IMG/VR virus record: IMGVR_UViG_3300020045_003515
Span: 1 to 28,280 of that record
Reading direction: 5' to 3' (one strand)
Origin: a virus
Lineage: Duplodnaviria; Caudoviricetes
Length of the DNA: 28,280 nt
Positions 1-28,280 of this stretch are shown one piece after another. Made by a program: the position numbers and the translations under genes. The notes under the pieces were generated by a model that saw only the letters and a program-made list of their open reading frames with translations, was not told where the DNA came from and made no database searches. How positions within the stretch are numbered: the stretch's first letter is position 1; the number at the start of each line of letters is the position of its first letter.

Positions 1-953
1 GTTATTATTCCTTCTGCTGGAACTCTAAACACAGTGTCATCCCCATAACCAGCTATATAAGTATAACCATAGGAATCTCTAGTAGCATTTCTAGGGTTAA
101 GACCAATTATACTTGATGTTAAGACTGCTCCTGCTAAGCTAACTTCTTTATAAGTATTGTCACTTGTTGAGGTAACTCCTAGTGTGTTTGTATCAGCGAA
201 GTAAGTTACATAAGCTAAGGCATCTGACAAGGTGTATGTAGTAGTTATAGTACCTAAGGTTGGTTGAATCTTGATAAGTTTCCCACCATTAGTTACCCAA
301 CCAGTGTAGATAAATTGTTGAGTACCTTGTAAAGTTACCCAAAGGTCATTGCCATCAAAAGCTACACCTACTGGAGCTATTCCCCAACTATAAGCAGCTA
401 CCATAGCTCCAGAAGTATTTATTCTGGCTACTTTGTTAGCTGTAAATAAGGTTGCCCATAGAAAAGTACCATCAAAAGCCATAGAAAGTACTTCTGAGTT
501 AGTAATTGTTGTACTAAGAAGAACCCCAGAAGTATTAATCTTATAGATTAACCCAGCATGACTATCCCCAAGCCATAAGTTAGTACCATCAAATAGAATA
601 GTTTGCAGTCCTTTACCTATTAGATAGTGTGCTACAAATGTTCCATCTAAGTTTAGTTTAGTAACCCCAGTCTTATTAAGACTTATTAGATACAGGTATG
701 TACCATCTGTTGCCATACCTATGGTAAAATCAGAAGTTGGGGTACTTACTAAGGTGGCAGTTGAACTAATATCCCCAACGGTAGTGCCTAAGGTGGCAGG
801 GTCATACTTTTCAATATAACCTCCTGTATTTGTTACCCAGACTGTATCATTAGCATCTGTAAGGCTGAACCATTTAAAGCCTAGTGTGAATGAAGGGGGT
901 GGTATGTACAGAGCCTCTCCCAGTACACCTCTTGGTTTATAGATAGGAATCAT
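1..953 (-). CDS. Beta-propeller protein (YncE/NHL/Vgb-like blades), probable virion or receptor-binding protein; 3' end outside window
   Basis: Not in the ORF track. ATG at 953, one base past the stop of the 237-aa ORF, and open to the window edge (>=317 codons: MIPIYKPRGVLGE...FRVPAEGII). Repeated blade motifs ATDGTYLYL, LFDGTNLWL, AFDGTFLWA, AFDGNDLWV about 40 aa apart. Confidence 0.8.
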   Translation of the reverse strand, partial: MIPIYKPRGVLGEALYIPPPSFTLGFKWFSLTDANDTVWVTNTGGYIEKYDPATLGTTVGDISSTATLVSTPTSDFTIGMATDGTYLYLISLNKTGVTKLNLDGTFVAHYLIGKGLQTILFDGTNLWLGDSHAGLIYKINTSGVLLSTTITNSEVLSMAFDGTFLWATLFTANKVARINTSGAMVAAYSWGIAPVGVAFDGNDLWVTLQGTQQFIYTGWVTNGGKLIKIQPTLGTITTTYTLSDALAYVTYFADTNTLGVTSTSDNTYKEVSLAGAVLTSSIIGLNPRNATRDSYGYTYIAGYGDDTVFRVPAEGII

Positions 954-954
954 C

Positions 955-1668
955 TTAGCTACTCTCTGCAATAGATAAGACACCAGCAGTAGCTGAGATT
1001 GCCGCTACTTTTGTAACAGATGGGTTTACCTTAAAGGGATAGGAGGGGACACCAGCAGTTAGTAGAATCGCTGGTTCTTGTCCTATCGCTACAGTAGGAT
1101 TTGTACCAATAGTTACCCAAGTATCTACGGTAGCTGTTAAGACTATACGTTTAGTAGCTGCACTTATAACAGCACTTACGGTTTCTACAGCAGAGGTAGC
1201 CAAGATTTGTCCTAGTATTAATACCACAGACTGCTCTATAGAGATTCCAGCTAGTAGAACTGCTAGAGCTGTTTGACTAGCTTCTGTTGCCGCATTAGCA
1301 GCTAAACCAACTGGTACTGGTGTGGCTCTTAGCTGTGTATCCGTTAAACCTTGAGTTAATCCAGTCTCTGCGGTAACAGTACCAGTAACTTCTACAGAAG
1401 AAACACCATAAGGTACTGGAGTTCCTGTAATAGTATAGGCACTACCATCAGATAGTTTCCAATTAGTTAAAACTGGAGGTGTATCTGCCGAAACTCTTTT
1501 GAAAAACAAAGTTCCATCTGTATCTTGCATTACGATGTTATCTACCGTGGCAACTGTAGACCCTCCACCAGAACCTCCTAAATCTTCTTTTGTTATATAT
1601 TCAACACCACCATCACCTGTTTGGATAATTGAACCTGTTTGTTTTACTGCTAGTAAGACTGTTTCCAT
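955..1668 (-). CDS. Hypothetical virion/tail-associated protein, 237 aa
   Basis: RBS AAGGA upstream on the - strand. Gly-rich linker (GGSGGGS) and an LTDTQLRATPVPV motif of the kind seen in phage tail-associated proteins. T/V/A-rich, beta-type C-terminus. Confidence 0.7.
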   Translation of the reverse strand: METVLLAVKQTGSIIQTGDGGVEYITKEDLGGSGGGSTVATVDNIVMQDTDGTLFFKRVSADTPPVLTNWKLSDGSAYTITGTPVPYGVSSVEVTGTVTAETGLTQGLTDTQLRATPVPVGLAANAATEASQTALAVLLAGISIEQSVVLILGQILATSAVETVSAVISAATKRIVLTATVDTWVTIGTNPTVAIGQEPAILLTAGVPSYPFKVNPSVTKVAAISATAGVLSIAESS

Positions 1669-1747
1669 TGTAGTTCCTTAATTATAATATGTAAGTGTAC
1701 TTTTTAATATTGTTCGGGTATACCTTTGAGACCGGATACCATAAGGC

Positions 1748-3166
1748 TCATAAGTATAAAAATCTTGCTCTAAGAACCATAACCCCTCCTGCGGCATTAT
1801 GAAAAGCTATACTAGCATTTGTTGTTTGGTTTGTTTTAGCTATTAGGTAATAAAGCGTCTTGGCTGCTATCAAAGTATTTTTAAACCTAGTTATAGTTCC
1901 CGAAGCTACTATCGTTCCAGATGCTCCTGCATTTGAGACATATCCAAGTAAGTCTGCATCCGATACAGAGCTATTGCTAGTAGAAAGGGCTACAAACATA
2001 TTTGCAGTTGTTTGTGCCGCATTAGATGTAGTTAGAGCAACTACTTGAAAAGATAGTTCCCATGCACCAATAGGCACAGCTATTTGTTCAGCAGTTGTCC
2101 CTAAGTTGTAGTAAACATTCTGTGTTGGGGTTGCTTGTGATTGCGAAGTTGTGTCATTTACTACAACATCCCATTTAGTAGGACTCATAGGAAAACCAAA
2201 TGGGGCTTTTTGTAGACTGAAATACGGCAATGTTATTGCTGCGTTAGCTAATGTATAATCTGTACCTCCATACAAAGTTATAGGTGTAACTCCACCAGAA
2301 TAAGCTCCTATAGCTGTAACTACAAAGTATTTAACAGTAGTTTGAGTTAATTTTATACGACTCCCTAAACTTAGATAACCTGTTGCATCTCCTGTCATAT
2401 TCATAACAAAAGTAGGACTATCTGCTGATACATAAGCACAAGCTCCTAAGGTTATCCAGCCAGATACATCATACCCTCCTAGGTAAGCTGGAGAGGCTAC
2501 AGGCAATCCTGCGGCATTTGTTAGGTTTATCGCACTGGGAGTTCCTAAGTTAGGGGTTACTAAAGATAGATTAACATAACTCTGTAAGTTAGTAGCATTA
2601 CCAACAGTAAGTCCAGTGGCATTACCATTACAATTAGTTAAATTCCCACTCGCTGGAGTTCCTAAAGCTGGTGTTGTTAGGTTTGGGCTATTAGAAAGTA
2701 CAAGACTGCCAGAGCCTGTAGAAAGGTTTACACCAGAACCACCTTTATCTACTGTTAGAATACCCTCTACTTGAGAAGTTAGATTAATCCCAGTTAAGTT
2801 ACCTCCTAGAGTTAAATTACCACCTGTTCCAGTGGCATTACCAGTTATAGTTAAGCCATTAACAGTACCATTACCCTGTACAAAGGAAAGGTTGCTTGTT
2901 CCTTTATTATTAAAAGTATTCCAATCTGTGCTAGTTAAAGCCCCTGCTTGTGTTGTATTTGCAATGTTAATACTTATATTAGGAGAAGACCCACCACTAA
3001 CAACAATAGGACTTGTTGCATTTATAGTTGAAATCCCACTAATATTGGCTACGGTATCTTGTAAAGCTTCAATGTCAGTCTTTGCGGCTGCAAAGTTAGC
3101 CCTAAGTTCTGCTGAACTTACCAAACTATTAGTTACTGGGATAGTTATATTAATTGTACTTGCCAT
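1748..3166 (-). CDS. Putative tail fibre/spike protein, 472 aa
   Basis: GGAGA RBS. N-terminal 'ELRANFAAAKTDIEALQ' attachment/coiled motif. G/T/N-rich shaft with repeated TP(A/N)LGTP...NLTN units and a distinct C-terminal domain. Lies directly downstream of J. Confidence 0.75.
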   Translation of the reverse strand: MASTINITIPVTNSLVSSAELRANFAAAKTDIEALQDTVANISGISTINATSPIVVSGGSSPNISINIANTTQAGALTSTDWNTFNNKGTSNLSFVQGNGTVNGLTITGNATGTGGNLTLGGNLTGINLTSQVEGILTVDKGGSGVNLSTGSGSLVLSNSPNLTTPALGTPASGNLTNCNGNATGLTVGNATNLQSYVNLSLVTPNLGTPSAINLTNAAGLPVASPAYLGGYDVSGWITLGACAYVSADSPTFVMNMTGDATGYLSLGSRIKLTQTTVKYFVVTAIGAYSGGVTPITLYGGTDYTLANAAITLPYFSLQKAPFGFPMSPTKWDVVVNDTTSQSQATPTQNVYYNLGTTAEQIAVPIGAWELSFQVVALTTSNAAQTTANMFVALSTSNSSVSDADLLGYVSNAGASGTIVASGTITRFKNTLIAAKTLYYLIAKTNQTTNASIAFHNAAGGVMVLRARFLYL

Positions 3167-3177
3167 GAGTATCTCCG

Positions 3178-5559
3178 TTAAAATTGTAGTGGCGAATAGC
3201 CATCATAGTATATACTAGAATCATAATGACAACCAGTATCATATCTGGTTTCAGCAAAACTAAAAGTAACGGCTTTACTAGGTAAATCTAGCGAACTTAT
3301 AGCTGTTACAGTGAAGAAATAAGTTACATTAGCCTGAAGAACCTGTGCAATAAAGTCTAAACTTTTAGTAGTAGTGGTAGCTGTACCAGAAGTTCCATAG
3401 GAAGTTGTGTAGTCTACTTGATAAGTATAACTTCGTCCAGTAATTTGAGTATGCTCCCAAGTTACAACAAAGTGTTTATTAGTTATGTCAGCTAGGTTTG
3501 TTAAATCTTGTAACTGTATATTACTAACAGCAGTAGTTTTACCTCTACTAACTTCAATAAAATTATTAGTACTTGGTAGTGTAACTATTTGCTCAATAAA
3601 GTCATACTTTCTAGCATCATATTTAGTAGCTTCTATTAAGTAGAGGTTATCTTCTTTAGTGATATTTGTTACTTTATAGGGTGTTGTTCTTTCAGACTTT
3701 TGAATAAAGATACTTTGTTCAATAAGTTCTAAAGTACCAGTGTAATCTGCTGATACTTCTGTAAGAGTTCCTGCAATTTCATTAAGCATTAGTTCTATTA
3801 AAGTCCCATCGGACTTATAAACCATTAAGGTAGTTATACCAGCTAAAGTAATTGCTCTATCCAATACTAGGCTAATTCCAACTGGACTAGCTATATAACT
3901 AACCACCCTTCCAGTCTCAATTGTATCAAACAAATTACTATCGTGTATTCTTATCAAACTCCCTTTATGTAGCATAACTGCTTCTATAAGACACCTGAAT
4001 TGAACTATCCCATCACCTGCTAGGTCAATCATAAGAGAGTCCCATAGAAGGTTTCTACCTTTACGAACTCCAGCAGATATACTAGCACACCCTAACATAA
4101 GAAAGTCAGAGCTAGTATAGCCATATAAGTCTACAAAATGCCCTCTAGTAAGTCCAAGGAAGTCCTCTAGTTCATCCACTAATACTGTAATTGTCCTTGT
4201 TCTATTTCTATTATCAATCTCTTGTATGGTTACGTTTATCTGTGTATTGTTATCAGTAATATCTGCACTAGCATATTCAAATAAACCTTCTTGAACATTT
4301 TGGTTAGTGAAGATTAAGCTTTGGTTAATCTCGGTAGTAGAGAATCGTCTATCCCATACAATAGATACTAATCCACCATACTCTATAAGTTCTGCATTGC
4401 CAACAGTAAGTAAATCATCCCTAGCAATTTTAGCATCTTTTCTTTCGATAAACTGTCTGTTAAGCGTATATCTTCTTTCAGTTAATGTAGGTGAGCTAGG
4501 AGTTTCCTTATAAGAAAGTAGTTCATCACAGTATCTTGCATATTCTTCAAAAGTGAAGTGAGCAAGATGTACTTTTGGAATATCACAACCACGGGGGTAT
4601 CGTATTCCATCAACCTCAAAGAATAGCCAATCGCTTAAGAAGTTATAAATAACCCAACTTAGATTATTATTATATTGGTAGATTGGTATACCTGCTACTG
4701 TGTGAAAAGTACCATCCCAAGTTAATCTACTTGGGTCTGTTGGAGATACAAAGGTAGTTCCATTACTATATAAACCATTAAAAGCATCATAATAGGCACT
4801 GGTTGGCAGCATTAACTTTACACCAGAACCTCTAACAGATATAGTTGGTATCCTATTAGATACCTCAGAAGCATCCTCTAAGCGGATAGCTATTAAAGCT
4901 GACCCAGCATAGTTACTAATATTCTCCGTACTATAGTAAGTAATATGTGGTATAGTCATAACCACAGCCTCGTCTAATGGGAAAATAGTGGTAGACTTAT
5001 GCGCTATCTTAACACCCCATTCATGGTCTCCTGTATTGCTAGTTGGTCTATAAGCTCTAAAGGTTGCTTGGTATTGTCCATCACTTTTACCAACAATATT
5101 TTGTGTAGATGCAAGAGTATAACTTGGAGCTACATAACTATCAGAAGTAGAAATATCAAAAAATACCATAGCATAGACAGAATCACCTTCGGTAGTTTTA
5201 TGAACTACTTGACTAAAGTTCACTGCAATATCTACATATTCGTAATCACCTGATATAGGTCTAACTACACCCGCAGGGTCTGCCTGAGGTAATGGGACAT
5301 CAACACCTTCGGTTAAAGAGGTAGAGTTTAGATGTGCAATACTTCCTTGATTAACTTCACCCCTTGTAAACGACCAACTAGCAGTAAATTCAGTAATACT
5401 AACATCATCAATATAAATATCTTCTATGTTAGTTATTTCTCCCTCACTAACTACAAATAATAAGTAAAGAGCTTGAGTAGTCTTTAAATTAGCTGGATAG
5501 CTAACTGGTTTAGCTGGTGGGCTACCACCTTCCCCATATAGTCTAGGTAAAGTATTCAT
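3178..5559 (-). CDS. Tail tip / host-specificity protein J-like (short form, ~793 aa)
   Basis: Motifs VSEGEI, WDGTF, NLSWVIYNFL, ARYCDEL, FTNQNVQEGLFEY and LGCAS..G.RKGR, plus a C-terminal FN3-like segment. Start placed at ATG 5559, an ATGA overlap with the stop of the I-like gene. Confidence 0.88.
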   Translation of the reverse strand: MNTLPRLYGEGGSPPAKPVSYPANLKTTQALYLLFVVSEGEITNIEDIYIDDVSITEFTASWSFTRGEVNQGSIAHLNSTSLTEGVDVPLPQADPAGVVRPISGDYEYVDIAVNFSQVVHKTTEGDSVYAMVFFDISTSDSYVAPSYTLASTQNIVGKSDGQYQATFRAYRPTSNTGDHEWGVKIAHKSTTIFPLDEAVVMTIPHITYYSTENISNYAGSALIAIRLEDASEVSNRIPTISVRGSGVKLMLPTSAYYDAFNGLYSNGTTFVSPTDPSRLTWDGTFHTVAGIPIYQYNNNLSWVIYNFLSDWLFFEVDGIRYPRGCDIPKVHLAHFTFEEYARYCDELLSYKETPSSPTLTERRYTLNRQFIERKDAKIARDDLLTVGNAELIEYGGLVSIVWDRRFSTTEINQSLIFTNQNVQEGLFEYASADITDNNTQINVTIQEIDNRNRTRTITVLVDELEDFLGLTRGHFVDLYGYTSSDFLMLGCASISAGVRKGRNLLWDSLMIDLAGDGIVQFRCLIEAVMLHKGSLIRIHDSNLFDTIETGRVVSYIASPVGISLVLDRAITLAGITTLMVYKSDGTLIELMLNEIAGTLTEVSADYTGTLELIEQSIFIQKSERTTPYKVTNITKEDNLYLIEATKYDARKYDFIEQIVTLPSTNNFIEVSRGKTTAVSNIQLQDLTNLADITNKHFVVTWEHTQITGRSYTYQVDYTTSYGTSGTATTTTKSLDFIAQVLQANVTYFFTVTAISSLDLPSKAVTFSFAETRYDTGCHYDSSIYYDGYSPLQF

Positions 5560-6197
5560 GAAAATTTCATCCAATTAGAAGGATAGTTCATACCTTCTGG
5601 AAAGGTTGCAATTGGTATAACATCTGGATAAACTGATAAGGCTTGCTCTAGTCTAAGACCTATACGAACTCCTCCAAAAAGACAGTTACCAAACACAACT
5701 GGAACACTTCCCCCTTGTTCAGTTATGTTAGGGACACCATTATATAGTTTAGATAGGTTGGAAGGGTCTTGGTTGTTATCTAGTTTATTTTGTGGGGTTA
5801 AGGCACGAACTAACATACCAAGACCAATGATTACACCTACATAAATTATAGTAGCTACTACATAGCCTACAGCTACCGCAGTAGCCGCAGAAGCTCCAGC
5901 AGCGGCAGCTCCAGCAGCAATAGCAGCCGCAACAGATGTAAAATAAGCGTCACCAGTTATCTTAGGACAAATTACTAAAACATCATAATTACTAATATCA
6001 AATTCCAACATAGTTGGTAGTATAGGATAAGCCTTCTCTTTATCTTGCATATAAACTGTATAGCAAAGTTCTTTCTCTGAAACTTCTTTAAATATCTCAG
6101 GTTTATTTATTTTAAGATAGTCATAAAGTTGTACTAAATTAACTACTTGTACATCAAAGCGTTCTCCTATGTTACCATTGAAGTATATAATCTGCAT
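5556..6197 (-). CDS. Tail assembly protein I-like
   Basis: N-terminal domain ending CPKITG, Ala-rich hydrophobic segment, and C-terminal NITEQGGSVPVVFG motif typical of lambda gpI homologs. Lies between K and J. Confidence 0.87.
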   Translation of the reverse strand: MQIIYFNGNIGERFDVQVVNLVQLYDYLKINKPEIFKEVSEKELCYTVYMQDKEKAYPILPTMLEFDISNYDVLVICPKITGDAYFTSVAAAIAAGAAAAGASAATAVAVGYVVATIIYVGVIIGLGMLVRALTPQNKLDNNQDPSNLSKLYNGVPNITEQGGSVPVVFGNCLFGGVRIGLRLEQALSVYPDVIPIATFPEGMNYPSNWMKFS

Positions 6198-6198
6198 C

Positions 6199-6978
6199 TT
6201 AGTTACCTATAGCTGGGTGTCTATAAACCTTAGTTATCTTATTAAGATAAAGTTCTAAAGGTTCAATCTTTGAATAGTCACCTTGATTAAGAATTGTACC
6301 GTTTCCTAGATAAATCATGGCATGATTATCCTTAAACCCTAGTATAGATATAATCAAAAGGTCTCCTTTCTGTAACTGCCCTGTCTTAGTAATATCAATA
6401 AGATTATTACTCTTAATAGCTTCTCCAACATTATCTTGTTGAAGTAAATTATGCTCCTGCAATTTATTATCTTCAAGGACTCTTTTTACCAAAGATGCCC
6501 AACTTTTCTTTTCTGTAAGATGGTCTGTTAGTGGAATCTTAATATTAATCCCAAACTCGAAGTGATAATAATCCCTAATAAGACAACCACAGTCTGATAC
6601 TCCGAAGATGTACGGTCTATTTAGATACTCTCTTGAAGGTTCTGGTGGAACTTTCAAGGGTTGGTAGTATTGACTCCCATCAAAAGCAGAGATATACAAA
6701 GGAAGGCTAACTGTAATAGCTAGTGTAAGGTCAGCCATAGAGGGTGTTTGTATGTGTACATGGCTCTTTTTGGTATGTGAATGTATGATAGCATAGATAG
6801 AGTCTTTATGTTCTAGGAACTTTAAAGGACAAAGTTCAAAAGATTTAGTTGGATTCTCTGCTATGTTTGGTTGTTCATGTAGGCTACCATCATGGTATAA
6901 GTATCCACAAAACTCGTTTGGGAAAGCCCTACGGGTAGCTAGTTCTATTTTAAGTAAAGTTGCATCTGAAAGTATCAT
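6199..6978 (-). CDS. Tail assembly protein K-like (JAB/MPN + NlpC/P60)
   Basis: JAB motif E-FCG ... HSH-x10-SMAD. NlpC/P60 motifs DCGCLIRDYY and NHAMIYLG. RBS GGAGA upstream. Confidence 0.92.
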   Translation of the reverse strand: MILSDATLLKIELATRRAFPNEFCGYLYHDGSLHEQPNIAENPTKSFELCPLKFLEHKDSIYAIIHSHTKKSHVHIQTPSMADLTLAITVSLPLYISAFDGSQYYQPLKVPPEPSREYLNRPYIFGVSDCGCLIRDYYHFEFGINIKIPLTDHLTEKKSWASLVKRVLEDNKLQEHNLLQQDNVGEAIKSNNLIDITKTGQLQKGDLLIISILGFKDNHAMIYLGNGTILNQGDYSKIEPLELYLNKITKVYRHPAIGN

Positions 6979-7008
6979 ATTATCTCCAATAAGGTTATTA
7001 TAGCTAGA

Positions 7009-7533
7009 CTAAATAGACTTAGTGTAAGCAAGCCCTTCAAATCTCATCTTATCTCTACCATCCCTAAGCATTTGTCGCCTTGGGTATTTCATCTGCTTAA
7101 AGTTAGTATAAGTTCCCATTCCATAGACTAATTGTCCAGCTTGCTTACTTAACATCTGGTCAATTGTAAAATGTCTCTTCATTAAAAACAAAGGTGTACT
7201 ACTTCCTACATCCTCTCCTATATAACTCTCTGTCGTCTGTACATACATTACTTTAGCACCTTTAAGATTAGGTACTTTGTAAACTGCGGAAAGCCAATAA
7301 GCATCCCTTTTAGCTATAGATAACTTAGGGGTGTCATTAGCATTTGTTTCATTAAATGTAACATCTGAGATTATAATTGGAAACGCAAGGTATTCCTGAC
7401 TATCCCAGAATAAACTCCCAGAACGTAGTGAACTAGTTAAACGATAATATACTCCATTGTACAATATCTCAAATAACTCCACAAGATTTGGGAGTTCTAG
7501 CTTTTGGATAAGTTGTAAGTTTTCGTCTGACAT
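7009..7533 (-). CDS. Minor tail protein L-like (no C-terminal Cys cluster)
   Basis: IQKLE...LVELFEI, W-x3-YLAFPI, PKLSI, LKGAKV and PRRQM motifs match the gpL N-terminal domain. First gene of the L-K-I-J run. Confidence 0.82.
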   Translation of the reverse strand: MSDENLQLIQKLELPNLVELFEILYNGVYYRLTSSLRSGSLFWDSQEYLAFPIIISDVTFNETNANDTPKLSIAKRDAYWLSAVYKVPNLKGAKVMYVQTTESYIGEDVGSSTPLFLMKRHFTIDQMLSKQAGQLVYGMGTYTNFKQMKYPRRQMLRDGRDKMRFEGLAYTKSI

Positions 7534-7610: not shown

Positions 7611-7898
7611 ATGACTGACCGTAGAAGCAATCCCGCTGAGATAGATTATAAAAGGCTGTTAGAAGAGCATATTGTTTCAGAAGAGCTTTACAAACAGCAA
7701 ACTACAGCATCCTTAATTACTCTTAGCAGTAAACTAGATGAGTTAACAGCTTCTACCACCGCAGTTGTTGAAGCTTATAAAACTGCGCAACAAGCTATTA
7801 AAATATCAACTTTCTTTGGTAGACTTGTAAAATTCACAATGGGAATTATCTTAGCCTATTATGCTTTAGATGGTTATCTCCATGCTTCTCATAAATAA
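7611..7898 (+). CDS. Small coiled-coil protein with C-terminal hydrophobic helix; holin/antiholin-like candidate
   Basis: Coiled-coil LSSKLDEL segment followed by the hydrophobic FTMGIILAYYAL. AAGG RBS. Function is inferred only from topology. Confidence 0.5.
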   Translation: MTDRRSNPAEIDYKRLLEEHIVSEELYKQQTTASLITLSSKLDELTASTTAVVEAYKTAQQAIKISTFFGRLVKFTMGIILAYYALDGYLHASHK

Positions 7899-7907
7899 AT
7901 AAACATT

Positions 7908-19837: not shown

Positions 19838-19850
19838 ATGTGGAGATAGA

Positions 19851-20576
19851 ATGAAAATTGTACCAGACTTTATTGAAGTTCCGCTTACAGCGCAAGATGC
19901 TAATTGTAAGGTTGACTTTGTAGTAGCTTTTAAATTAATAAATCCAAAGCAAGCTAGATACCTAAGAAATAAAACACTTAAAGCCGAATACGAATTACAA
20001 GTAGCCTTACTACTAAGCAATATAGTTTACATACATAAACTTGCAGATTCGTCTGGTAATTTAGTAAACTCTTTTGAACAGGATATTACAAAAACAATCC
20101 TTAGTAGTCTCCCCTATTTCAAAACTATCTTGGTTAATTGGCTATCTATTTTATACAGCATGGGTCAAGTAAACCTAAAGTCATTGCAAGAAGCTAACTT
20201 ATTTGAGTGTGGCAAGTTTCAATATGAAGCAGACTATGGTATAATGGATTTAGAAACACAAATAAAAGAAGACACTAAAAAGTTACAAGATAGTATGGGC
20301 GCGTTTATGTCATTTACTGATGAGGAAATTGTAGTCTCTACTACGGTAACTAAGGAAAAACTTACAATAAGTTCTTTACCTAAATTAGTTTGGAAGTCGA
20401 ATGTTATCTATCTTGAACTGTTTAATCTTGCTAAGTTTTACCAAAATGAATGGGCGATACTTAACCCAATTGTATTGATTGAACTAGCTAAAGAATTTAA
20501 ATTAACATTGAAAGATACATTAGGTTTTATACCTATAATACAAGCAGGGTATAATTCCTTAAAACCTGAAAAATAA
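19851..20576 (+). CDS. Tail assembly chaperone, G-T-like in-frame fusion
   Basis: N-half resembles the 147-aa chaperone (F.V.FK, NIV..., DSSG, LPY). C-terminal VWKSN...LF...L...L..I resembles gpT/DUF1799-type domains. Confidence 0.6.
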   Translation: MKIVPDFIEVPLTAQDANCKVDFVVAFKLINPKQARYLRNKTLKAEYELQVALLLSNIVYIHKLADSSGNLVNSFEQDITKTILSSLPYFKTILVNWLSILYSMGQVNLKSLQEANLFECGKFQYEADYGIMDLETQIKEDTKKLQDSMGAFMSFTDEEIVVSTTVTKEKLTISSLPKLVWKSNVIYLELFNLAKFYQNEWAILNPIVLIELAKEFKLTLKDTLGFIPIIQAGYNSLKPEK

Positions 20577-20598
20577 TTAACAATCTTGGAGATAAGAT

Positions 20599-21222
20599 AT
20601 GAGTGATTTTGTGGAAGTACCAAGAATCAGAACTAAGTTTGGTAAGGATAGTTTTATCTTTGGTGTTGGTATTAACGATGCTGCTTACAAAGTAACCTTA
20701 AAAGTAGGAGGTAAACTTTCAACCTGCCCTTATTATAGAACTTGGAAGAATCTACTTGCTAGATTATACTGCCCTGCCTTCCTAATAAGTAATCCTACTT
20801 ATATTAATTGTACGATAACACCTGCTTGGTTAAGTTTCACTAACTTTAAGGCTTGGATGGAACAACAGGATTGGAAGGGAAAGCAACTAGATAAGGATAT
20901 ATTAGTTAAAAACAATAAACACTACAGTCCTGAAACCTGTATGTTTATACCTCCTAGAGTAAATAAACTATTAAATAATCAAGATGCTGGTAGAGGTACT
21001 TGCAAATTAGGTGTTAGCTATAGAACAGATTCTAAAAACTTTAAAGCTTCATGCAATGATGGTTTTAAAGTAGTCTCTCTAGGTAGCTTTGCTACCGAAG
21101 ATGAAGCACATCTAACATATCTTAAATTCAAGAAAACAGTTATAATAAACTGTGCAAACGAACAAACTGATTTACGCCTTAAACAAGCTTTACTAACTAT
21201 AGCTGATAGCTATATAATTTAA
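20599..21222 (+). CDS. Free-standing HNH-type homing endonuclease with AP2-like C-terminus
   Basis: YRTW..LL.R, W..F.NFK.W, LDKDIL...N..YSPETC.FIP..VN, GVS and LGSFATEDEAH motifs of phage HNH/AP2 endonucleases. Confidence 0.88.
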   Translation: MSDFVEVPRIRTKFGKDSFIFGVGINDAAYKVTLKVGGKLSTCPYYRTWKNLLARLYCPAFLISNPTYINCTITPAWLSFTNFKAWMEQQDWKGKQLDKDILVKNNKHYSPETCMFIPPRVNKLLNNQDAGRGTCKLGVSYRTDSKNFKASCNDGFKVVSLGSFATEDEAHLTYLKFKKTVIINCANEQTDLRLKQALLTIADSYII

Positions 21223-21238
21223 CCTTTGGAGATAACCC

Positions 21239-21682
21239 ATGCAATACTTATTACCCTTACAAACACCTACTGTAATCATTGATGTTAAAGTCAAAGATAG
21301 TTCTGGCAAAGGTGATAACCTACAAGTTGAGTTCAGACGCTACCCTATCCTAGAAGCTAACAAAATCTTAGCTGAGTTCGATAAAATCGCAGAAAGCAAC
21401 CAAAAGACTTTGGAAGATATGAAAGATACTAACCAAAGTATCTGGGAAAGTTCTGTAGTCAATGAAGCTGCCGATGTTAAAGAGTTTGTCCGTAAACATA
21501 TTGTTGACTTTAAGAATGTCCGTGGCACAGATGATTCTGGCAAGACTATTAAAGTTACTTCTGTACAAGCGCAAGGTGATTTAGATAAATACTTTGATTT
21601 GCTCTGGGCTAGTTTCCCGTACAGGGATGCTTTGCGTACTTCTTGCTTACATGCTATTCAGAATACTGCTAGTAATTCCTAG
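21239..21682 (+). CDS. Tail assembly chaperone, gpG-like
   Basis: PT..IDV, VEFRR, IVDFKNV..DDSG and LL.ASFPY pattern. Directly upstream of the tape measure. GGAGA RBS. Confidence 0.72.
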   Translation: MQYLLPLQTPTVIIDVKVKDSSGKGDNLQVEFRRYPILEANKILAEFDKIAESNQKTLEDMKDTNQSIWESSVVNEAADVKEFVRKHIVDFKNVRGTDDSGKTIKVTSVQAQGDLDKYFDLLWASFPYRDALRTSCLHAIQNTASNS

Positions 21683-21702
21683 CTTCCTCGCGTGATGCTT
21701 TA

Positions 21703-21728
21703 AGGGGTAGTTTTCTACCCCTCTTTTT
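21703..21728 (+). terminator. Rho-independent terminator/attenuator before tape measure
   Basis: AGGGGTAG-TTTT-CTACCCCT followed by CTTTTT. Confidence 0.8.
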
Positions 21729-21751
21729 AAAACCTTTTGGAGTTCTTTATT

Positions 21752-24700
21752 ATGGCTGAGTCTAAAATAACCTATGTACTAGCTTTGGATACATCTAATG
21801 TTAATTCACAAATTAGTAAAGTAGCCTCAAGCTTAGATAAACTGGGAGCTAAAAAAGGTCAGAAGGTTATTGACTTTGATAAGGCTAGTATTAAACAAAT
21901 AGAAGACCATCTTACTAAACTTCTAAAGTTACAAGAAGATATTAAAAGAGGGGCTAGAGACTCCATCAAACAATCCCCATATTCAGTACTAAATAAAGCA
22001 GGTACTTTAAATACTGGTGCAACTACTACGGCTGTTAGAAGTGCTATTGGGAAAGTTGGTGATGCCTATATACAAAAGATATTACTAGAAGTTGATAAAG
22101 CTAAACTAGCTGAAAGTAAAGCTACCATAGCTAAGTTCTTTGCAGAAAAGAAAGCTTTTGAAGACCAAGCCTATAAAGAATTTGCGGCTCAAGCTACTAA
22201 AGAACTTAAACTAAAAGAACAAATGGCTAAAGTTGAAGCCGAGAAAGCTTCTATCTACGCTAAACAAACTACACAAATACAAACCCTTGTAAAGCAACAA
22301 GTGGATTATCTAGCTAAGATTGAAGCCACTAAAAAAGCTCAGGATGCTATTACACAGAGTTTGTTGACTAGACTGAATGCTGCTAAATTAGATACTATTA
22401 CACAAGCCTCTAATGCTTCTGCTAAAGCTTCTATTGGCTATAGACAAAAGATAGAAGAAGAAGCCCTTAACAGAAGACAACAACTAGAGCAACAAAAACT
22501 TAGTTGGCTAGAACAAGCTAGAATTAATATAGAAAATAAAATAGAAACTGCAAGTCTAGCATCTATTGCTAGAGTAAAAGCCGTTGACTTAGCTAGAATA
22601 GCCGCAATACAAGCTAGAGAAGATGCTCTGCAAGTTCATAGAACCTCTATGTTGCAGACTGCTCAAGGTGGTATTTATAATGGAGCTATGCTAGGAAGCG
22701 GTGCTGCTTCTTCAAAACAAACCAGCTACACACCAGACTTAAGAGCTTCTGCTGATAAACAAACTGGACTTATAAAAGGAATGTATGAAACACAGACTGC
22801 TTATAATGAACGAATTAAAGAAGCTATAAAACTTCTTGACCAAGCTAAGACTGGTGTTATGAATCTTGATAAAGCTCATAAACCTTTCCTAGAACGTATA
22901 TTTGACCTAGTTGTTGGTTATAAACTTATTAATGCTGCTGTTAATACCTTTACAAATGCAATGCGTAGTGTTCCAGAAGCAGGGTTGCAGTTTGAAACTA
23001 CCTATGCAACATTGAAAGCTGTATTCAGTGTAACTACAAAGGTTAATCAAGAACTTAAGTTCCTAGATGACCTCGCACAATCTGCTGGTATTAGCGTGTC
23101 CACCTTACGTTCTAGTTTCGTAGACTTTGCGGCTAGTGCTAAATTCTCAGGCGAAAAAGTAGAGAATATTCAAGAAATCTTTGCTAACATTTCAAAAGCT
23201 GGTATGGTCTTGCATCTTCCAGCTGATAAGATGAAAAGTGCCTTTACTGCACTTAACCAAATGTATGCAAAGAATCAAGTTATGATGGAAGAGTTAAAAC
23301 GTCAGTTAGGTAATCAGTTACCTGCTGCTGTTAATATCTTTGCATTAAGTATGGGTAAGACTACTAGGCAGTTAATGGATGATATGAAGAAAGGGTTAGT
23401 AGTTCCCAAGGAGACTCTACTTAACTTCTCAAGAACTTATGCGGCTATGTTTGCTGACCCAGCTAGTTTGGAATATGCAAGCCAAGGTGTTAATGCCCAT
23501 ATTCAAAGATTATCAACTGCTTGGACTAACTTTGCAACTACTGTTTACGAACAAAGTAAAGGAGCTATTAAAGGTGGCTTAAGTATAGCTACAAGTGCTA
23601 TAGATTTTCTTACTAAACACATGACAGGTTTAGCAAACATTGCTGTAGTTACTGGAACTGTTTTAGGTGGTGCTTTGGTTATGCACTTAGGTAAAGCAAC
23701 CCTTGCCTATCTGCAAGCTAGTAAAGCTGTTATTGCTTTTGCGGCTGCACAAACTACTATGCTTGGAACAAGTGTTGCTGTTGGTGAACTTGGACTACTT
23801 CAAACTATTAAGGCATTTACTGTTGGTACTTTAGCGGCTATCCCACCTTGGGTTAAGTTAGTTGCTATAGTTGGAACTATGGTTATGGTTCTGAAAGATT
23901 TGGAGGTTGGAACTGTTAAAGTTATGTCTTCTTTAGACCAAATGGATGGAAAAGCTATTGAAGTTCAAAAAAGTATTACAGTAAGTGACGTTGCTATCGC
24001 TAGTTGGGATATTTTAATAAGTAAAATATCAACTGCGACTACCTCATTTGCAGATTGGTATGCTAAAAACTCGCAAACTACAGAACTTCCTAATTTTATG
24101 AAGCCATCTGGAACTTCTATAGCGGATACGATAGGATATAGTATTCCAAGTATAGCCCCTTTATATCATACAGCTAAACAATATGCTAAGGCTGGTAGTA
24201 TTAAAGCGGAACAAGATGCAATAGCTAAAGCTAATGCAGAAGAAGCAGCAAGGCAAACAGAATATGTCAATGAGAAAGTTAAAGAAGCGTTACTAGCTGG
24301 GACTACAAATACAGTCGATGAAACTATGGCTGGTATGACTAAAGGGGTAACTATGGCTTTACAGGTTATCACTACCCAATTTGATATTGCTATGCAAAGA
24401 ATACAAGGGGTAACAAGTCTTAGAGTAAAAGACCTTCAATTTGAACTAACTAAAGTAAAAGCACAAGAAGCCAGAGGTGAACTTACAAAACTAGATGCGT
24501 TGAAACAAACACAGTCTATTCAAGCAAAGATACGAAAAGAAGCTAGAGATGCTTTAGAAGATGAAATTAGTTTACTTAAAGAACAGCAAAAACGGATTCA
24601 GATAGTTGGAGATACTCAACTAGAAAACTCCAAAGAAGCTAAACGTGCGGCTACACAGGAAGATAAACTAGCTAAACTTAGAGCTGATAGGGCTAATATC

Positions 24701-27253
24701 GTTGGAATCTTACCAACATTGAAAGATAGTCCTTATATAGATAGAAAAGCGGCAGAAGAAGCTTTAGGTTCTGGAACTTTGCCACAAGCTTTAAAAACAC
24801 AAGCAGTAGAAGAATGGAATAAGAATAACCCAACTAAACCTTTATTTGATAAGATTGATGTTACTAATAAAGCTCTTATGGCACAGAAGGAATCCTTAGA
24901 TAAAGCTAGGGACGAATATGCTAAGATAACTACAGAACATAGTGCGCTACAGTTAAGAGTTGTGGAAGGTACTTCTACTTCTAATGACTTCTTAGAAAAA
25001 ATTGCCATTAACACCGACCCAGCTACTGTTACAGCCGTAGAGTTTGATGGCGTTGCTAGTGCTGGAGCATCTGCTACTATTGCCACGGACTCTGCTAAGA
25101 AAGCTATTGAGTTTTTTATCGCTAAGGGATGGAAACCTGAGCAAGCTATGGGTATAACAGCTAACCTTCAAGGTGAAAGCAGTTTTAATACAGGTAATGT
25201 TGGTGACGGTGGTGTCGCCTATGGATTAGGTCAATGGCATCCAGACAGACAAGCTAACTTTGCAAAGGCTTTTGGTAAGTCTATTAAAGGTTCTTCATTT
25301 GAAGACCAGTTAGCTTTTGTAGACTGGGAACTTAAAAATACGGAAGCTAGGGCGGGTAGTTTACTAAAAGCAACTAGGACAGTTGCAGAAGCTACTAACT
25401 CTGTTACAGCTAACTATGAAAGACCTAAGTATACATCCAAAGACCAAGCAATTAGACGAGAAATAGCTAAGTCTTATTTACCTTCTGCTGGTTACGTTAA
25501 ATCTGGTGCAGAACCAACAGCACAATCTAGCATGGATGTAGATAAAAAGTTAGAAAGTGCCTATCTGAAACAACAAGAATTGGTCAAAGAGGAACGACAA
25601 GCTAAGTTTGAAGATGAACAAGCTAAGCTATTAGAACAACTACAGCAAACTAAAACAAACTTAGTAGCAAACTTACAACTTTCTAAGACTACTAAAGAAA
25701 CTGAACTCGCTAAACTAGACAACCTTGCTTTCCCACTTTCAGATAAACAACGCCTAGCCAAGACTGCTGAAATTAATACTAAAGCTAATCCTGAACTTGT
25801 TTCACAGATTGATAAACTTGTTGCTAATGCTAAAGAAACTATACTTAGAACAGCAGACCAAGCTACTAAGTCTGGCTTGCAAGCAGAGATTCTCAACTTA
25901 GAAAAAGAACGTGCAAGTATAAGTGCTGAAACTCTTAAAGATAAAACAGCAATAGAACTTAATAAGATTATTCCCTTACAAGATGCCTTAGAACGTAAAC
26001 AATTTGAGATACAAAAGTCCTTAGAGGAAAGTTTAGGTATTTTTAACGAAGAAACTATTGTAATGAGTAAAAGACTTTCACAAGAAGATACTTTAAAACT
26101 TCTTGCAACTGAGAAACTACGTCTTGCAGAAGCAAATAATGGTCTTTCTAAACAGGAAATAGCTGATAAGGAACTTCTTATATCTAAAACAGAGAAGCAA
26201 CTTACTCAACTTAACCAGATTGAGTTAATTAAAGCTAAGATTGCACATAAAGAAACTATTAATAATGCCCAAGCAGCTTACGAAGATGCGGCTGCCCAGA
26301 ACTTACCAATGGCACAAGCTGCAAAGATGGGTGCTAGTGGTAACTTTATAGGGGCTTTTGTTACAGAAGAAGCTGCAAGGTCTAAGTCCGACACTCTTGG
26401 AACGAGCCTATCACTTTCTAAACAAAAGTTAGCTCTCTCGGAGACTCAAGGTGGTAAAGGTTCTGAGGAATGGCTGAAACTTCGTACAGAGATTGCACAA
26501 ACCACAACGGCAATGAATGACCTTGCCTTTGCTAAAGATGCAGTCATAAACCAAGCTACAGCAGACACTATGAACTCTATAAGTGACCACTTTATAGCTT
26601 GGGCTAATGGGGCAGAGACTGTTAAAGATGCTTTCCGAGGAATAGCTATTGACTTTGCTAAGATGATTCAAGAAATGATTATGAATGAACTTAAGCTACA
26701 AGCTATTAAAGGTATTACTAGCCTAATATCTAGTGGCTTTGGATTTGCTTCTGGCGGTAGTGTAGGTGCTGGTATGCTAAGTTCGGGAGTATCTTCCTTT
26801 AAGTCTGGGGCTGGTTTTGCAACTGGTGGAGATATTAGAGGAACTGGTACTGGAACTTCTGATAGCATCCCCGCAATTGTACCTATTGGAAGTTATGTTC
26901 TTAATGCGAAAGCCTCTGCTAAAGCTAAGAAGAATCGATTAATCAATATAAGCCACGGTGAAGTTGTGATAAGTCCTGAACAAGTAGCAAGTCTTGGTCT
27001 TGATAATCTTAATACTATGAATAAACAGAACTATGCAACTGGTGGTTTAGTCGGTGGAAGTTCCTCTACTTCTTCAAATTCCAAAGGTTCAAAAGTTTCT
27101 AATGTAACTAATATAAATGTCACAGTACCAGAAGGAACTTCTAATCCTAAACAATTTGGGCAGGATGTTAGCGTTGAGATTATGAAAGCGGTTGCTAGAG
27201 AAGAAGCAAAAAAACAAGTTAATATGTATGACAAACAAAAGAATAGGGGATAA
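21752..27253 (+). CDS. Tape measure protein with phage tail lysozyme domain
   Basis: About 1833 aa, helical, A/K/E-rich. Tape-measure motif ALNQMYAKNQVMMEELKRQLG. Lysozyme motif GITANLQGES...YGLGQW...YERP (~25094-25475). C-terminal FATGG..GTGTSDSIPA. Start moved to ATG 21752 (GGAG at 21739-21742). Confidence 0.95.
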   Translation: MAESKITYVLALDTSNVNSQISKVASSLDKLGAKKGQKVIDFDKASIKQIEDHLTKLLKLQEDIKRGARDSIKQSPYSVLNKAGTLNTGATTTAVRSAIGKVGDAYIQKILLEVDKAKLAESKATIAKFFAEKKAFEDQAYKEFAAQATKELKLKEQMAKVEAEKASIYAKQTTQIQTLVKQQVDYLAKIEATKKAQDAITQSLLTRLNAAKLDTITQASNASAKASIGYRQKIEEEALNRRQQLEQQKLSWLEQARINIENKIETASLASIARVKAVDLARIAAIQAREDALQVHRTSMLQTAQGGIYNGAMLGSGAASSKQTSYTPDLRASADKQTGLIKGMYETQTAYNERIKEAIKLLDQAKTGVMNLDKAHKPFLERIFDLVVGYKLINAAVNTFTNAMRSVPEAGLQFETTYATLKAVFSVTTKVNQELKFLDDLAQSAGISVSTLRSSFVDFAASAKFSGEKVENIQEIFANISKAGMVLHLPADKMKSAFTALNQMYAKNQVMMEELKRQLGNQLPAAVNIFALSMGKTTRQLMDDMKKGLVVPKETLLNFSRTYAAMFADPASLEYASQGVNAHIQRLSTAWTNFATTVYEQSKGAIKGGLSIATSAIDFLTKHMTGLANIAVVTGTVLGGALVMHLGKATLAYLQASKAVIAFAAAQTTMLGTSVAVGELGLLQTIKAFTVGTLAAIPPWVKLVAIVGTMVMVLKDLEVGTVKVMSSLDQMDGKAIEVQKSITVSDVAIASWDILISKISTATTSFADWYAKNSQTTELPNFMKPSGTSIADTIGYSIPSIAPLYHTAKQYAKAGSIKAEQDAIAKANAEEAARQTEYVNEKVKEALLAGTTNTVDETMAGMTKGVTMALQVITTQFDIAMQRIQGVTSLRVKDLQFELTKVKAQEARGELTKLDALKQTQSIQAKIRKEARDALEDEISLLKEQQKRIQIVGDTQLENSKEAKRAATQEDKLAKLRADRANIVGILPTLKDSPYIDRKAAEEALGSGTLPQALKTQAVEEWNKNNPTKPLFDKIDVTNKALMAQKESLDKARDEYAKITTEHSALQLRVVEGTSTSNDFLEKIAINTDPATVTAVEFDGVASAGASATIATDSAKKAIEFFIAKGWKPEQAMGITANLQGESSFNTGNVGDGGVAYGLGQWHPDRQANFAKAFGKSIKGSSFEDQLAFVDWELKNTEARAGSLLKATRTVAEATNSVTANYERPKYTSKDQAIRREIAKSYLPSAGYVKSGAEPTAQSSMDVDKKLESAYLKQQELVKEERQAKFEDEQAKLLEQLQQTKTNLVANLQLSKTTKETELAKLDNLAFPLSDKQRLAKTAEINTKANPELVSQIDKLVANAKETILRTADQATKSGLQAEILNLEKERASISAETLKDKTAIELNKIIPLQDALERKQFEIQKSLEESLGIFNEETIVMSKRLSQEDTLKLLATEKLRLAEANNGLSKQEIADKELLISKTEKQLTQLNQIELIKAKIAHKETINNAQAAYEDAAAQNLPMAQAAKMGASGNFIGAFVTEEAARSKSDTLGTSLSLSKQKLALSETQGGKGSEEWLKLRTEIAQTTTAMNDLAFAKDAVINQATADTMNSISDHFIAWANGAETVKDAFRGIAIDFAKMIQEMIMNELKLQAIKGITSLISSGFGFASGGSVGAGMLSSGVSSFKSGAGFATGGDIRGTGTGTSDSIPAIVPIGSYVLNAKASAKAKKNRLINISHGEVVISPEQVASLGLDNLNTMNKQNYATGGLVGGSSSTSSNSKGSKVSNVTNINVTVPEGTSNPKQFGQDVSVEIMKAVAREEAKKQVNMYDKQKNRG

Positions 27254-27256
27254 TCC

Positions 27257-27571
27257 ATGATTGCTATGCCTTTACCTTGTAAGATATTAAAAAATCAATC
27301 AAGTAATGCTTCTGTAGATATTGTCAACTTTGGTCAGATTTCTAAGGATATTCATAGCCTTAATCCTCATAGTCTTGGTGAAGTTGTAGATTTTGAATGG
27401 GGTAATTTGAGTTATGCAGAAGTACAAAGCCTAGAAACTATCTTCCGAAGTGCAAAAGCTACTGAGAGGTTTACCTATGAACTTGGTCGTTATCTTATGG
27501 AGGATGGATTTACTATAAGTGTACAGGGTAATAAACCTATAATTCAAGCATCTTTTAGGAAAGTCCAATGA
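27257..27571 (+). CDS. Minor tail protein M-like (distal tail), copy 1
   Basis: Follows the tape measure. V.FG, LN, W..LS..E...LE.IF and IQASFRKV match the gpM pattern. Confidence 0.68.
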   Translation: MIAMPLPCKILKNQSSNASVDIVNFGQISKDIHSLNPHSLGEVVDFEWGNLSYAEVQSLETIFRSAKATERFTYELGRYLMEDGFTISVQGNKPIIQASFRKVQ

Positions 27572-28280
27572 CAGTTTATATCCTCCCTTTTGTAAATAAG
27601 TTATCTAGTAACTATTCTAAGAAAGTTAGCTTCACTAATGGAGCTTGTAAAGCTAATAATCAATATGTTCGTAAAGTTGGGGTAGGTATACATAATAGCC
27701 AAACAAGTTATGAACTTAGATATATTGGATTGACTAGCGAGGAACTTTTAGAGCTAGAGAACTTATTCAGTTATCAAGCATTAGGTGATTTAGTAAGTTT
27801 CAAGTCACCAATTGATGCTACTATTGGTTACTATTTCAAACCTACGTCATGGAAAAAGAGTAGATATTATAAAATTCTAGCTAATAACCAACGTGTTAAG
27901 GTGTTTGATATAGAATTTAGCCTTATAGAGGGTAATAGACTATCTAATAGCTTATTACCAATAGAACCTTTGGAAACCTATCAGATTAACGTGGCTAGTA
28001 CAGTAATTTATGAGGCATCTTCACTAACTTGTTCTGTTATAACAACTAATGTATCTGATGGAACTATACTATACTGGACTCTATATAATATAACTACGGC
28101 TTTAACCGATGTTACACCACAATCTGGTTCAGTTACTATAACAACATCTTCTGCTAGTTTTATTATAGACATACTAGCAGATGCTTATTTAGAAGGGGTA
28201 GAGACTTTTCAAATTCAGTTAAGAGTTGGTGGGATTACTGGCGGTGTAGTTGCGCTTAGCCCTGTTGTATCGATACGAGA
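27568..28280 (+). CDS. Second gpM-like protein fused to a Calx-beta/Ig-like domain; 3' end outside window
   Basis: Not in the ORF track. ATGA overlap at 27568, open to the window edge. N-terminal Y.RK.GVGIHN...YELRYIGLT.EE...LE..F...F..P is gpM-like. C-terminal TTNVSDGTILYW...SGSVTI...LADAYLEGVETF.IQLR is Calx-beta-like. Confidence 0.75.
   Translation, partial: MTVYILPFVNKLSSNYSKKVSFTNGACKANNQYVRKVGVGIHNSQTSYELRYIGLTSEELLELENLFSYQALGDLVSFKSPIDATIGYYFKPTSWKKSRYYKILANNQRVKVFDIEFSLIEGNRLSNSLLPIEPLETYQINVASTVIYEASSLTCSVITTNVSDGTILYWTLYNITTALTDVTPQSGSVTITTSSASFIIDILADAYLEGVETFQIQLRVGGITGGVVALSPVVSIR

Follow-up and report, generated by a model that had tools for sequence, protein, structure and literature searches.

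How can a stretch of phage DNA come to hold not one GATC, GGCC, GGNCC or CCNGG, and its proteins not one Gly-Pro, Pro-Gly or Trp-Pro? The window analysed here (positions 1 to 28,280, the full 28,280 bp of its virus record) comes from an uncultured tailed phage and covers its structural module, annotated with a lambda-type terminase, portal, capsid and tail tip. No close cultured relative was found, the top identity of its terminase large subunit (TerL) being 32%. Very probably, about twenty short palindromic words are gone because the host lineage, perhaps a methanotroph genus, has long selected against them with its many type II restriction enzymes.

Exact counts confirm the absences reported in the initial annotation. 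GATC occurs nowhere in the 28,280 bp, against 71.7 sites expected from a maximal-order and 51.7 from a first-order Markov model; the earlier estimate of about 90 fits base composition only. By the same Markov approach GGCC stands at 0 against 20.5, CCWGG at 0 against 22.9 and GGWCC at 0 against 14.7, and CCSGG and GGSCC are absent as well. GGNCC and CCNGG are each 0 against 34 expected and are also missing out of frame, where 9.4 and 13.1, respectively, were expected. CCGG survives twice (19.2 expected, Markov), at 1732-1735 in an ACCGGA context, which is not CCSGG, and at 11556-11559 in a TCCGGC context. As had been noticed, Asp ahead of a C-starting codon is always GAC (56 GAC, 0 GAT); overall GAT is the major Asp codon (307 versus 155).

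The avoidance extends to about fifteen further palindromes, nearly lost, that the initial annotation did not list. Under a codon-shuffle null GGNNCC stands at 1 against 22 (the sole site is at 14085-14090) and CTGAAG, which we take to be a type IIG site, at 1 against 24, while observed/expected counts are 1/10 for RCATGY, 0/10 for YACGTR, 0/7 for RGCGCY, 0/8 for GDGCHC, 0/8 for CTGCAG, 0/9 for GAATTC, 0/8 for TTCGAA, 0/7 for CATATG and 0/6 for ATGCAT. As in type II restriction-site avoidance generally, palindromes resembling recognition sites fall far under compositional expectation in the window. The depletion is selective, since palindromes of equal length are retained (AGCT 250/205, GTAC 94/97, TGCA 118/109), as are GCNGC (69/70), GANTC (62/61) and AAGCTT (22/21). 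CTAG, described as abundant, is indeed close to expectation (158 versus 183), but 6-mers containing it are depleted (ACTAGT 1/17, GCTAGC 1/12.5, TCTAGA 1/8). Because words are missing out of frame too, these data point to selection at the DNA level, and selection on words typical of type II restriction-modification (R-M) is well supported by the counts. The enzymes named for the proposed host are not a unique solution, as the zero for GGNCC is explicable by GGWCC plus GGCC, that for CCNGG by CCWGG plus CCGG, and about fifteen further specificities are involved.

GGNCC and CCNGG are self-complementary, so their absence makes Gly-Pro and Pro-Gly impossible in any frame. Against 2,000 within-protein shuffles of 24 ORFs (8,525 aa), each dipeptide was found 0 times with 16.9 expected, the two lowest z-scores among all 400 dipeptides. 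The loss of these two is thus as originally claimed, but Trp-Pro (0 versus 3.4, p=0.029) is not significant alone among 400 tests. Other dipeptides that oblige a motif (AA, VT and TV) are near expectation, together with their motifs. AP (7 versus 23) and KK (22 versus 45) are likewise low in the window, and PA is normal (27 versus 26).

The view that the purge rewrote conserved protein motifs is partly supported, comparison with homologues upholding three of the seven cases put forward and failing to uphold two. The M15 endolysin (15884-16258, plus strand) reads DGVHF at 16223-16237, a site at which 120 homologues divide into 86 with GP, 32 with GV and 2 with another pair; the tape measure protein (21737-27253, plus) reads RGTGTGTSDS at 26837-26866, where GP occupies 158 of 257 motif copies from 128 of 150 homologues; and the lambda-family portal (11121-12569, plus) reads NANQ at 11778-11789, a PG position in 36 of 55 background relatives. 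All three depart from the family majority. The portal LATGE (12027-12041), conversely, lies where the background is mostly NK (39/55), PG not being among the listed states, and the VIWG (14370-14381) of a putative decoration protein (13758-14540, plus; the label is that of the initial annotation, and a family search gave no match) lies where 32 rows list WA, WS or WK and no WP. For the HKGS (3958-3969) of the central tail fibre J (3178-5574, minus), KG is present in 8/8 alignment rows, window included, every one of them purged, and for the QKGD (6361-6372) of tail protein K (JAB and NlpC/P60; 6199-6978, minus) none of the 26 homologues returned has PG. Elsewhere, terminase gpA (8529-10493, plus) has SG at residue 615 (10365-10379), where 53 background relatives include 25 with PG, 13 with SG and 12 with AG, and a putative tail tube protein (17828-19783, plus), labelled from its position and without a match in a family search, carries SS at residue 30, a GP position in 12 of 27 background relatives. 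A single GP or PG column conserved at 50% or more was available as a retention control. The rewriting claim is weaker than first stated because the same swaps are present in unpurged phages: DGVHF occurs in the unpurged or less purged phages MP1 (GGNCC 75/73) and ECD7 (61/150), and the portal PG is already replaced by SN in seven unpurged sister lineages. Substitutions at the lost sites are thus not specific to the purge, and homologues from unrelated hosts, whose sharing of them the initial annotation would have counted against its own reading, do so in part.

Relatives of the phage display the same phenomenon in degrees. In the 66-kb relative G001, Gly-Pro, Pro-Gly and Trp-Pro are all zero in 19,076 aa (33, 33 and 7 expected); its record, ~71% complete, carries PolA, ThyX, dUTPase and two Rep3 initiators, and no integrase was found among the 24 non-structural proteins scanned. 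The purge is present in three separate terminase lineages. On the TerL tree the purged state requires three changes, A+B and A+C being rejected as clades, and the tree does not separate three gains from a single gain followed by losses. In lineage C, VG and TG occupy sites at which most sisters retain PG, and lineage B has a different avoidance profile. In a comparison of 59 family loci, each 9 kb or longer and taken uncorrected for relatedness, out-of-frame motif observed/expected (O/E) ratios track dipeptide O/E (rho 0.59 for both pairs). The cross-correlations (GGNCC with Pro-Gly 0.41, CCNGG with Gly-Pro 0.63) about equal the matched ones, which indicates that this gradient mirrors general purge strength. 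Median motif O/E in these loci is lower out of frame (0.15 and 0.19) than in frame (0.29 and 0.49), and in partially purged relatives in-frame sites persist after out-of-frame ones are lost. Conserved enzyme motifs hold several of the Pro-Gly pairs that are the last to survive. The PhoH of G006 has a Walker A reading GAAGSGKT, against GPAGSGKT in 3B85, and retains LPGT; in G005 the sole PG in ORFs of at least 100 aa aligns with the DPG of a solved RNR, and SGSLSF stands where that structure reads SGPVSF. The likely course is that unmethylated phage DNA would be cut upon entry, silent changes would come first and remove most sites, and obligate sites, among them the words that would be unavoidable for Gly-Pro, Pro-Gly and Trp-Pro codons, would be the last to go, through substitutions that the protein already tolerates.

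The idea that the avoidance profile fingerprints the host yields a lead to one methanotroph genus, that of genome G033, which on profile match and enzyme families has about an even chance of being the host. All nine genomes of the genus avoid the words missing from the phage (rho 0.66-0.83), whereas 14 other genomes of the family span 0.16-0.64 and seven other Gammaproteobacteria with an Eco47II match span 0.07-0.51. As a check, the method was applied to cyanophages A-4L and N1, for which the Nostocales plasmids came out on top. The genus encodes matching enzyme families, with HaeIII-, NgoBV-, HpaII-, Eco47II-, DpnII- and EcoRII-family genes; G033 itself gave no Eco47II, DpnII or EcoRII-C match and depletes GATC only to 0.39, and a SinI-family enzyme was found in 1 of 201 genomes, outside the genus. 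The proteome of the genus is also depleted (observed/expected Gly-Pro 58/196, Pro-Gly 87/196; 0/33 for each on the phage side). A fuller reading, in which a methanotroph genus saturated with type II R-M has reshaped its own and its phages' proteomes, structural modules only 30-39% identical have arrived at the same purge within a single host gene pool, and the palindrome profile alone suffices to assign the host, is tentative and falls somewhat short of an even prospect.

Direct links to the genus were not found. Spacers were taken from Cas1-adjacent arrays of four genomes, and none of the 281 matched any phage locus, the best having 7 mismatches, about that of the reversed-spacer null; the TerL profile detected no family prophage in the nine genus genomes; the phage tRNA-Gln and tRNA-Ser were each found in 0 of 5 genomes; and when window DNA was compared with 301 genomes of the Methylobacter MAG's family, the matches were all short and lay outside arrays. 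One further match, AT-rich and 23 nt long, in G062 was rejected as it is not part of an array. Rep3 was uninformative as a host marker, its matches reaching only 24-34% identity (48 of 201 family genomes) and ~27-31% (the plasmids listed). A search of the methylome literature brought up nothing of relevance to the motif set. Alternatively, the phage may be a generalist that has shed the type II sites most common among several host genera, its profile then fingerprinting no single host and its match to the methanotrophs reflecting shared common specificities. In favour of that unlikely though serious alternative, spacer, prophage and tRNA searches gave no link, the phage drops words that G033 scarcely avoids (CTGAAG 98/122, GAATTC 49/77, AACGTT 95/126), and T7, not a phage of the genus, reaches rho 0.65 and Nostoc plasmid DNA 0.62. 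Against it stand the separation of all nine genus genomes from both comparison sets, the top ranking of the Nostocales plasmids for A-4L and N1, and the differing profile of lineage B.

That the sites were modified by host or phage methyltransferases and then lost by 5mC deamination, or in escape from modification-dependent nucleases, and not because unmethylated sites are cut, is improbable. The candidate host chromosome avoids the same words and has C5 methyltransferases at seven loci, and G001 encodes an N6/N4 methyltransferase. Restriction-enzyme genes, however, adjoin several of the host methyltransferases, and elimination is complete and covers words to which deamination is inapplicable, GATC, CTGCAG, GAATTC and GATATC being usually adenine-methylated.

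Avoidance of Gly-Pro and Pro-Gly in translation, for example through proline stalling, with the DNA gaps secondary, could draw on the low AP and KK counts, but is largely refuted and very improbable: depletion is not confined to the coding frame, about fifteen palindromes that force no dipeptide are also gone, and PA is normal. A phage nuclease directed at host DNA, whose own target is avoided, has next to no likelihood despite HNH, GIY-YIG and LAGLIDADG domains in the window and G001, as one nuclease cannot account for about twenty unrelated words and no type II restriction enzyme family was detected in 24 window proteins or in the 24 non-structural proteins of the ~71% complete G001.

Selection by host type II enzymes, as favoured here, means that restriction can drive a phage beyond silent changes to amino-acid changes. 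Within the family, purging runs by degrees from none to complete, a natural gradient in which conserved enzyme motifs keep the last sites, and the protein cost of avoidance is therefore measurable. The avoidance profile points to a candidate host among methane oxidisers not yet cultured and yields a prediction of that lineage's methylome, which would be relevant to transforming them.

Site avoidance as a mechanism is textbook knowledge, and the dipeptide effect follows directly from it. Type II palindromic sites are completely or nearly eliminated in about one-tenth of viral genomes, more commonly in non-temperate phages (PMC6286503). The window fits this pattern, described for orthodox type II palindromes in dsDNA phages by Rusinov et al. 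2018 (PMC6286503), but loses about twenty words at once plus two obligate dipeptides, and also depletes CTGAAG, a kind of site reported there as not generally avoided; 'amino acid', 'synonymous' and 'codon' have 0 occurrences in the main text of that paper. Rosenblumvirus phages have likewise lost GGNCC totally, a loss ascribed to Sau96I, with the protein consequence unmentioned in the accessible text of the report (PMC6346686). LysECD7 (PDB 8Q2G; identified in PMC11267749) shares the M15 family and the DGVHFQL motif with the window lysin. Yet in ECD7 GGNCC is only partly depleted and 21 Gly-Pro remain over 100 kb of counted sequence, which means that valine can stand there without a purge. 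In cultured phages from R-M-bearing hosts the dipeptide loss matches the avoided motif. Staphylococcus phage K, counted over 80 of its 148 kb, resembles the window in GATC (0/219), GGNCC (0/58), Gly-Pro (0/46) and Trp-Pro (0/6), but retains Pro-Gly (30/46) and has lost AA instead (3/52). Gly-Pro is also absent from the stretches counted of phi29 (0/11), Anabaena A-4L (0/36) and Nostoc N1 (0/43), so that zero Gly-Pro, one case of the dipeptide loss that the initial annotation held to be the striking part, occurs in 4 of 15 hand-picked cultured phages. Pro-Gly is scarce in Yersinia PY100 (3/37) and lactococcal c2 (1/12, with AA 1/24). Both dipeptides are zero in none of the 15, lactococcal sk1 coming nearest (Gly-Pro 1/11, Pro-Gly 1/11, AA 2/30). 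The phage is thus an extreme case of a known strategy of site evasion that is seen in textbook phages as well.

GATC, of which 72 copies were expected, is absent from the window, as the initial annotation had reported, and so are GGCC (20.5 expected), CCWGG (22.9), GGWCC (14.7), GGNCC (34) and CCNGG (34), while CCGG occurs twice (19). The claim that Asp before a C-starting codon is always GAC is equally accurate (GAC 56, GAT 0). Under a codon-shuffle null further words are depleted (observed/expected: GGNNCC 1/22, RCATGY 1/10, YACGTR 0/10, RGCGCY 0/7, GDGCHC 0/8, CTGCAG 0/8, GAATTC 0/9, TTCGAA 0/8, ACTAGT 1/16, TCTAGA 1/11, CTGAAG 1/24), but the loss is selective among palindromes, as AGCT, GTAC, TGCA, GCNGC, GANTC and AAGCTT occur at normal levels. 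Loss of GGWCC and GGCC gives zero GGNCC, and loss of CCWGG and CCGG gives zero CCNGG; the Sau3AI/MboI-, Sau96I-, ScrFI/EcoRII- and HaeIII-like enzymes originally proposed are therefore one list among several possible.

In 24 ORFs (8,525 aa) Gly-Pro and Pro-Gly, which force GGNCC and CCNGG, respectively, are both absent against 16.9 expected each, the bottom two of the 400 dipeptides. Trp-Pro, also proposed as lost, is indeed missing, although its zero (3.4 expected, p=0.029) is weak alone. Two further dipeptides are depleted, Lys-Lys at 22 against 45 expected and Ala-Pro at 7 against 23, and no obligate motif accounts for either. A translation-level cause of the Gly-Pro and Pro-Gly loss is ruled out, since with protein sequences held fixed the motifs are also missing out of frame (GGNCC 0 vs 9.4, CCNGG 0 vs 13.1), the words thus being absent in all frames, and the remaining obligate-motif dipeptides, Ala-Ala, Val-Thr and Thr-Val, are unaffected.

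The window (28,280 bp, 36.7% GC) carries a phage structural module that comprises a lambda-type terminase gpA, a portal, capsid E and a tape measure protein, along with an M15 endolysin and the tail genes L, K, I and J; its top terminase match among cultured phages has 32% identity. The tail-tip genes L, K, I and J, with genes beyond (955-7533, minus strand), diverge from the head-tail operon (7611-27571, plus strand), an arrangement also found in the relatives G001 and G006, whereas G005 has L and K collinear downstream of the tape measure gene. Open frames at both ends, 1-958 (minus) and 27562-28280 (plus), run off the record, which is thus a fragment. The endolysin gene (15884-16258; homologues among fetched loci in L009 and L010 only) and an HNH gene (20599-21222; homologues in no fetched locus), both free of avoided words, look like recent exchanges.

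Relatives came from three retrievals of 3, 80 (3 repeating the first) and 14 loci, 86 of which (78 distinct) carry a terminase 520 aa or longer. The 66-kb G001 (terminase 93% identical) contains no Gly-Pro, Pro-Gly or Trp-Pro in 19,076 aa (33, 33 and 7 expected). Full purge occurs in three terminase lineages: A (the window, L001-3 and L008-10), B (L019, which is G006; Gly-Pro 0/27, Pro-Gly 3/27) and C (L050, L051 and L048; the last is G005, with Gly-Pro 1/30 and Pro-Gly 1/30). In a 48-terminase tree, built from the family's 69 after exclusion of 21 near-copies or partial rows, the purged state requires three changes, with gain and loss indistinguishable. AU tests reject clades A+B (p 3e-8) and A+C (p 6e-39), the groups having been named after the first tree was inspected. 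G005 and G001 share up to 96% identity in replication genes and 30-39% in head genes, which at sequence level points to a swap of the whole structural module. A and C also have a common word profile; that of B differs (CTGAAG 72/48, AGTACT 58/52). Shared replication genes and the same profile suggest that A and C draw on one host gene pool.

The purge is graded over relatives. Among the 59 family loci that span 9 kb or more, motif O/E out of frame and dipeptide O/E correlate (rho 0.59 for both, uncorrected for relatedness), with median O/E of 0.15 and 0.19 out of frame vs 0.29 and 0.49 in frame. Mismatched motif-dipeptide pairs correlate about equally (0.41, 0.63), so the gradient reflects overall purge strength. 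Plasmid-type Rep3 initiators accompany a family A polymerase (G001 28898-29683 and 33872-34606; G005 L100:12639-13466), the initiators possibly indicating a phage-plasmid lifestyle. G001 also encodes a UvrD-like helicase whose intein bears a LAGLIDADG domain (60880-63486), and the B12-type ribonucleotide reductase of G005 (L100:4031-6859) has intein-like matches.

The proposal that conserved motifs were rewritten holds in part: lysin, tape measure and portal residue 221 depart from the family majority, but the same swaps occur in unpurged phages. The lysin motif has Gly-Pro in 86 of 120 homologues (Gly-Val 32, other 2), and the window's DGVHF recurs in MP1 (GGNCC 75/73), in ECD7 (61/150) and in the solved LysECD7. 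Gly-Pro occupies 158 of 257 tape measure motif copies (motif found in 128 of 150 proteins); the five closest matches read GT, GT, GV, GK and GV, with no GP or PG, yet GA, GS and GK turn up as well in proteins retaining GP elsewhere. At portal residue 221 the background has PG in 36 of its 55 rows, while all seven members of A have AN, B has SN and C has VG; SN already stands in seven sister lineages of A and B, all of them unpurged. Terminase residue 615 is PG in 25, SG in 13 and AG in 12 of 53. The portal LATGE and decoration VIWG, suggested to replace PG and WP, do neither in the family alignment, and the homologue sets compared yielded no unpurged homologues of K and J. The clearest signs of protein cost lie in relatives, from one structure alignment each, and there residual sites fall within conserved motifs. 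PhoH of G006 reads GAAGSGKT where PDB 3B85 has GPAGSGKT, yet retains LPGT, one of 3 CCNGG in 64 kb; the sole Pro-Gly of G005 (ORFs of at least 100 aa), in a ribonucleotide reductase motif, aligns to the DPG of PDB 1XJK, and the SGPVSF of that structure is SGSLSF in G005.

Restriction-modification very probably provided the selection behind the purge. Host type II enzymes would cut incoming unmethylated phage DNA; most sites would be removed through silent changes, and obligate sites would go last, via substitutions the family already tolerates.

A weakly purged family contig, L086, was binned in a Methylobacter MAG; it may be mis-binned, as bins of Roizmanbacteria and Balneolaceae contain further family members. 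When the bacterial family of that MAG was sampled, a chance short match led to G033, a genome from a methanotroph genus. In 277 kb it shows GGCC 107/801, CCGG 35/573, GGWCC 31/217, CCWGG 75/360, GGNNCC 44/508, RCATGY 16/258, RGCGCY 4/304, GRCGYC 1/185, GDGCHC 11/297, YACGTR 5/204 and CTGCAG 2/63, and its proteins Gly-Pro 58/196 and Pro-Gly 87/196. The chromosomes of all nine sampled genomes of the genus are strongly palindrome-depleted, with Gly-Pro and Pro-Gly reduced. A pmoA/amoA-family gene is present in G033 (two of five genus genomes tested). G033 has C5 methyltransferases at seven loci: three are paired with endonucleases of the HaeIII, NgoBV and HpaII families, a fourth with a weak SacI match and a fifth with an HNH gene. 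At L222:6655-8628 (G033:C18) a C5 methyltransferase and an HpaII-family endonuclease are fused in a single 658-aa ORF. Of the nine genomes, four carry Eco47II-family genes, one DpnII and one a split EcoRII-C, all three lacking from G033; enzyme specificities are predicted from family. Eco47II occurs in 25 of 201 genomes of the bacterial family and 8 of 400 of the class. Palindrome-profile correlations with lineage A, from 9-60 kb per genome (G033, 277 kb), are 0.66-0.83 for all nine genus genomes, 0.16-0.64 for 14 others of the family, 0.07-0.51 for seven of the eight Eco47II-bearing class genomes (the eighth, with <2 kb, was excluded); two Nostocales plasmids reach 0.61-0.62. In a control comparison, the best matches of cyanophages A-4L and N1 are the Nostocales plasmids, but T7 reaches 0.65 against G033, which counts against the method. 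No link to the phage family came from spacers (281, from arrays in four genomes), prophages (nine genus genomes) or tRNAs (five genomes). A CRISPR array in G033 (L218:136-10249, G033:C40; 169 repeats, 32-nt spacers) has no spacer matching the phage family. We give the genus of G033 an even chance of being the host.

For comparison, 15 cultured phages were hand-picked (6 lysin matches and 9 chosen as avoiders or references; 5 counted in part). Four have no Gly-Pro (phage K 0/46, phi29 0/11, A-4L 0/36, N1 0/43), and none of the 15 has both Gly-Pro and Pro-Gly at zero. Counts are low in sk1 (Gly-Pro 1/11, Pro-Gly 1/11, Ala-Ala 2/30), c2 (Pro-Gly 1/12, Ala-Ala 1/24) and PY100 (Pro-Gly 3/37). Ala-Ala, following GCNGC loss, is nearly gone in phage K (3/52), sk1 and c2 (loci L156-159 and L161-164 for the three). 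A literature search that covered few subscription or older papers and no supplements found no paper on dipeptide loss. In the text consulted, PMC6346686 reports complete GGNCC loss in Rosenblumvirus, Rusinov 2018 (PMC6286503) nowhere mentions amino acids and a review (PMC8410138) handles site avoidance as synonymous. The purge is real and strong, but the window phage is an extreme case of an established strategy, and textbook phages show the same protein-level effect; new are the double loss of Gly-Pro and Pro-Gly with about twenty words, its recurrence over the phage family and a host lead that can be tested.
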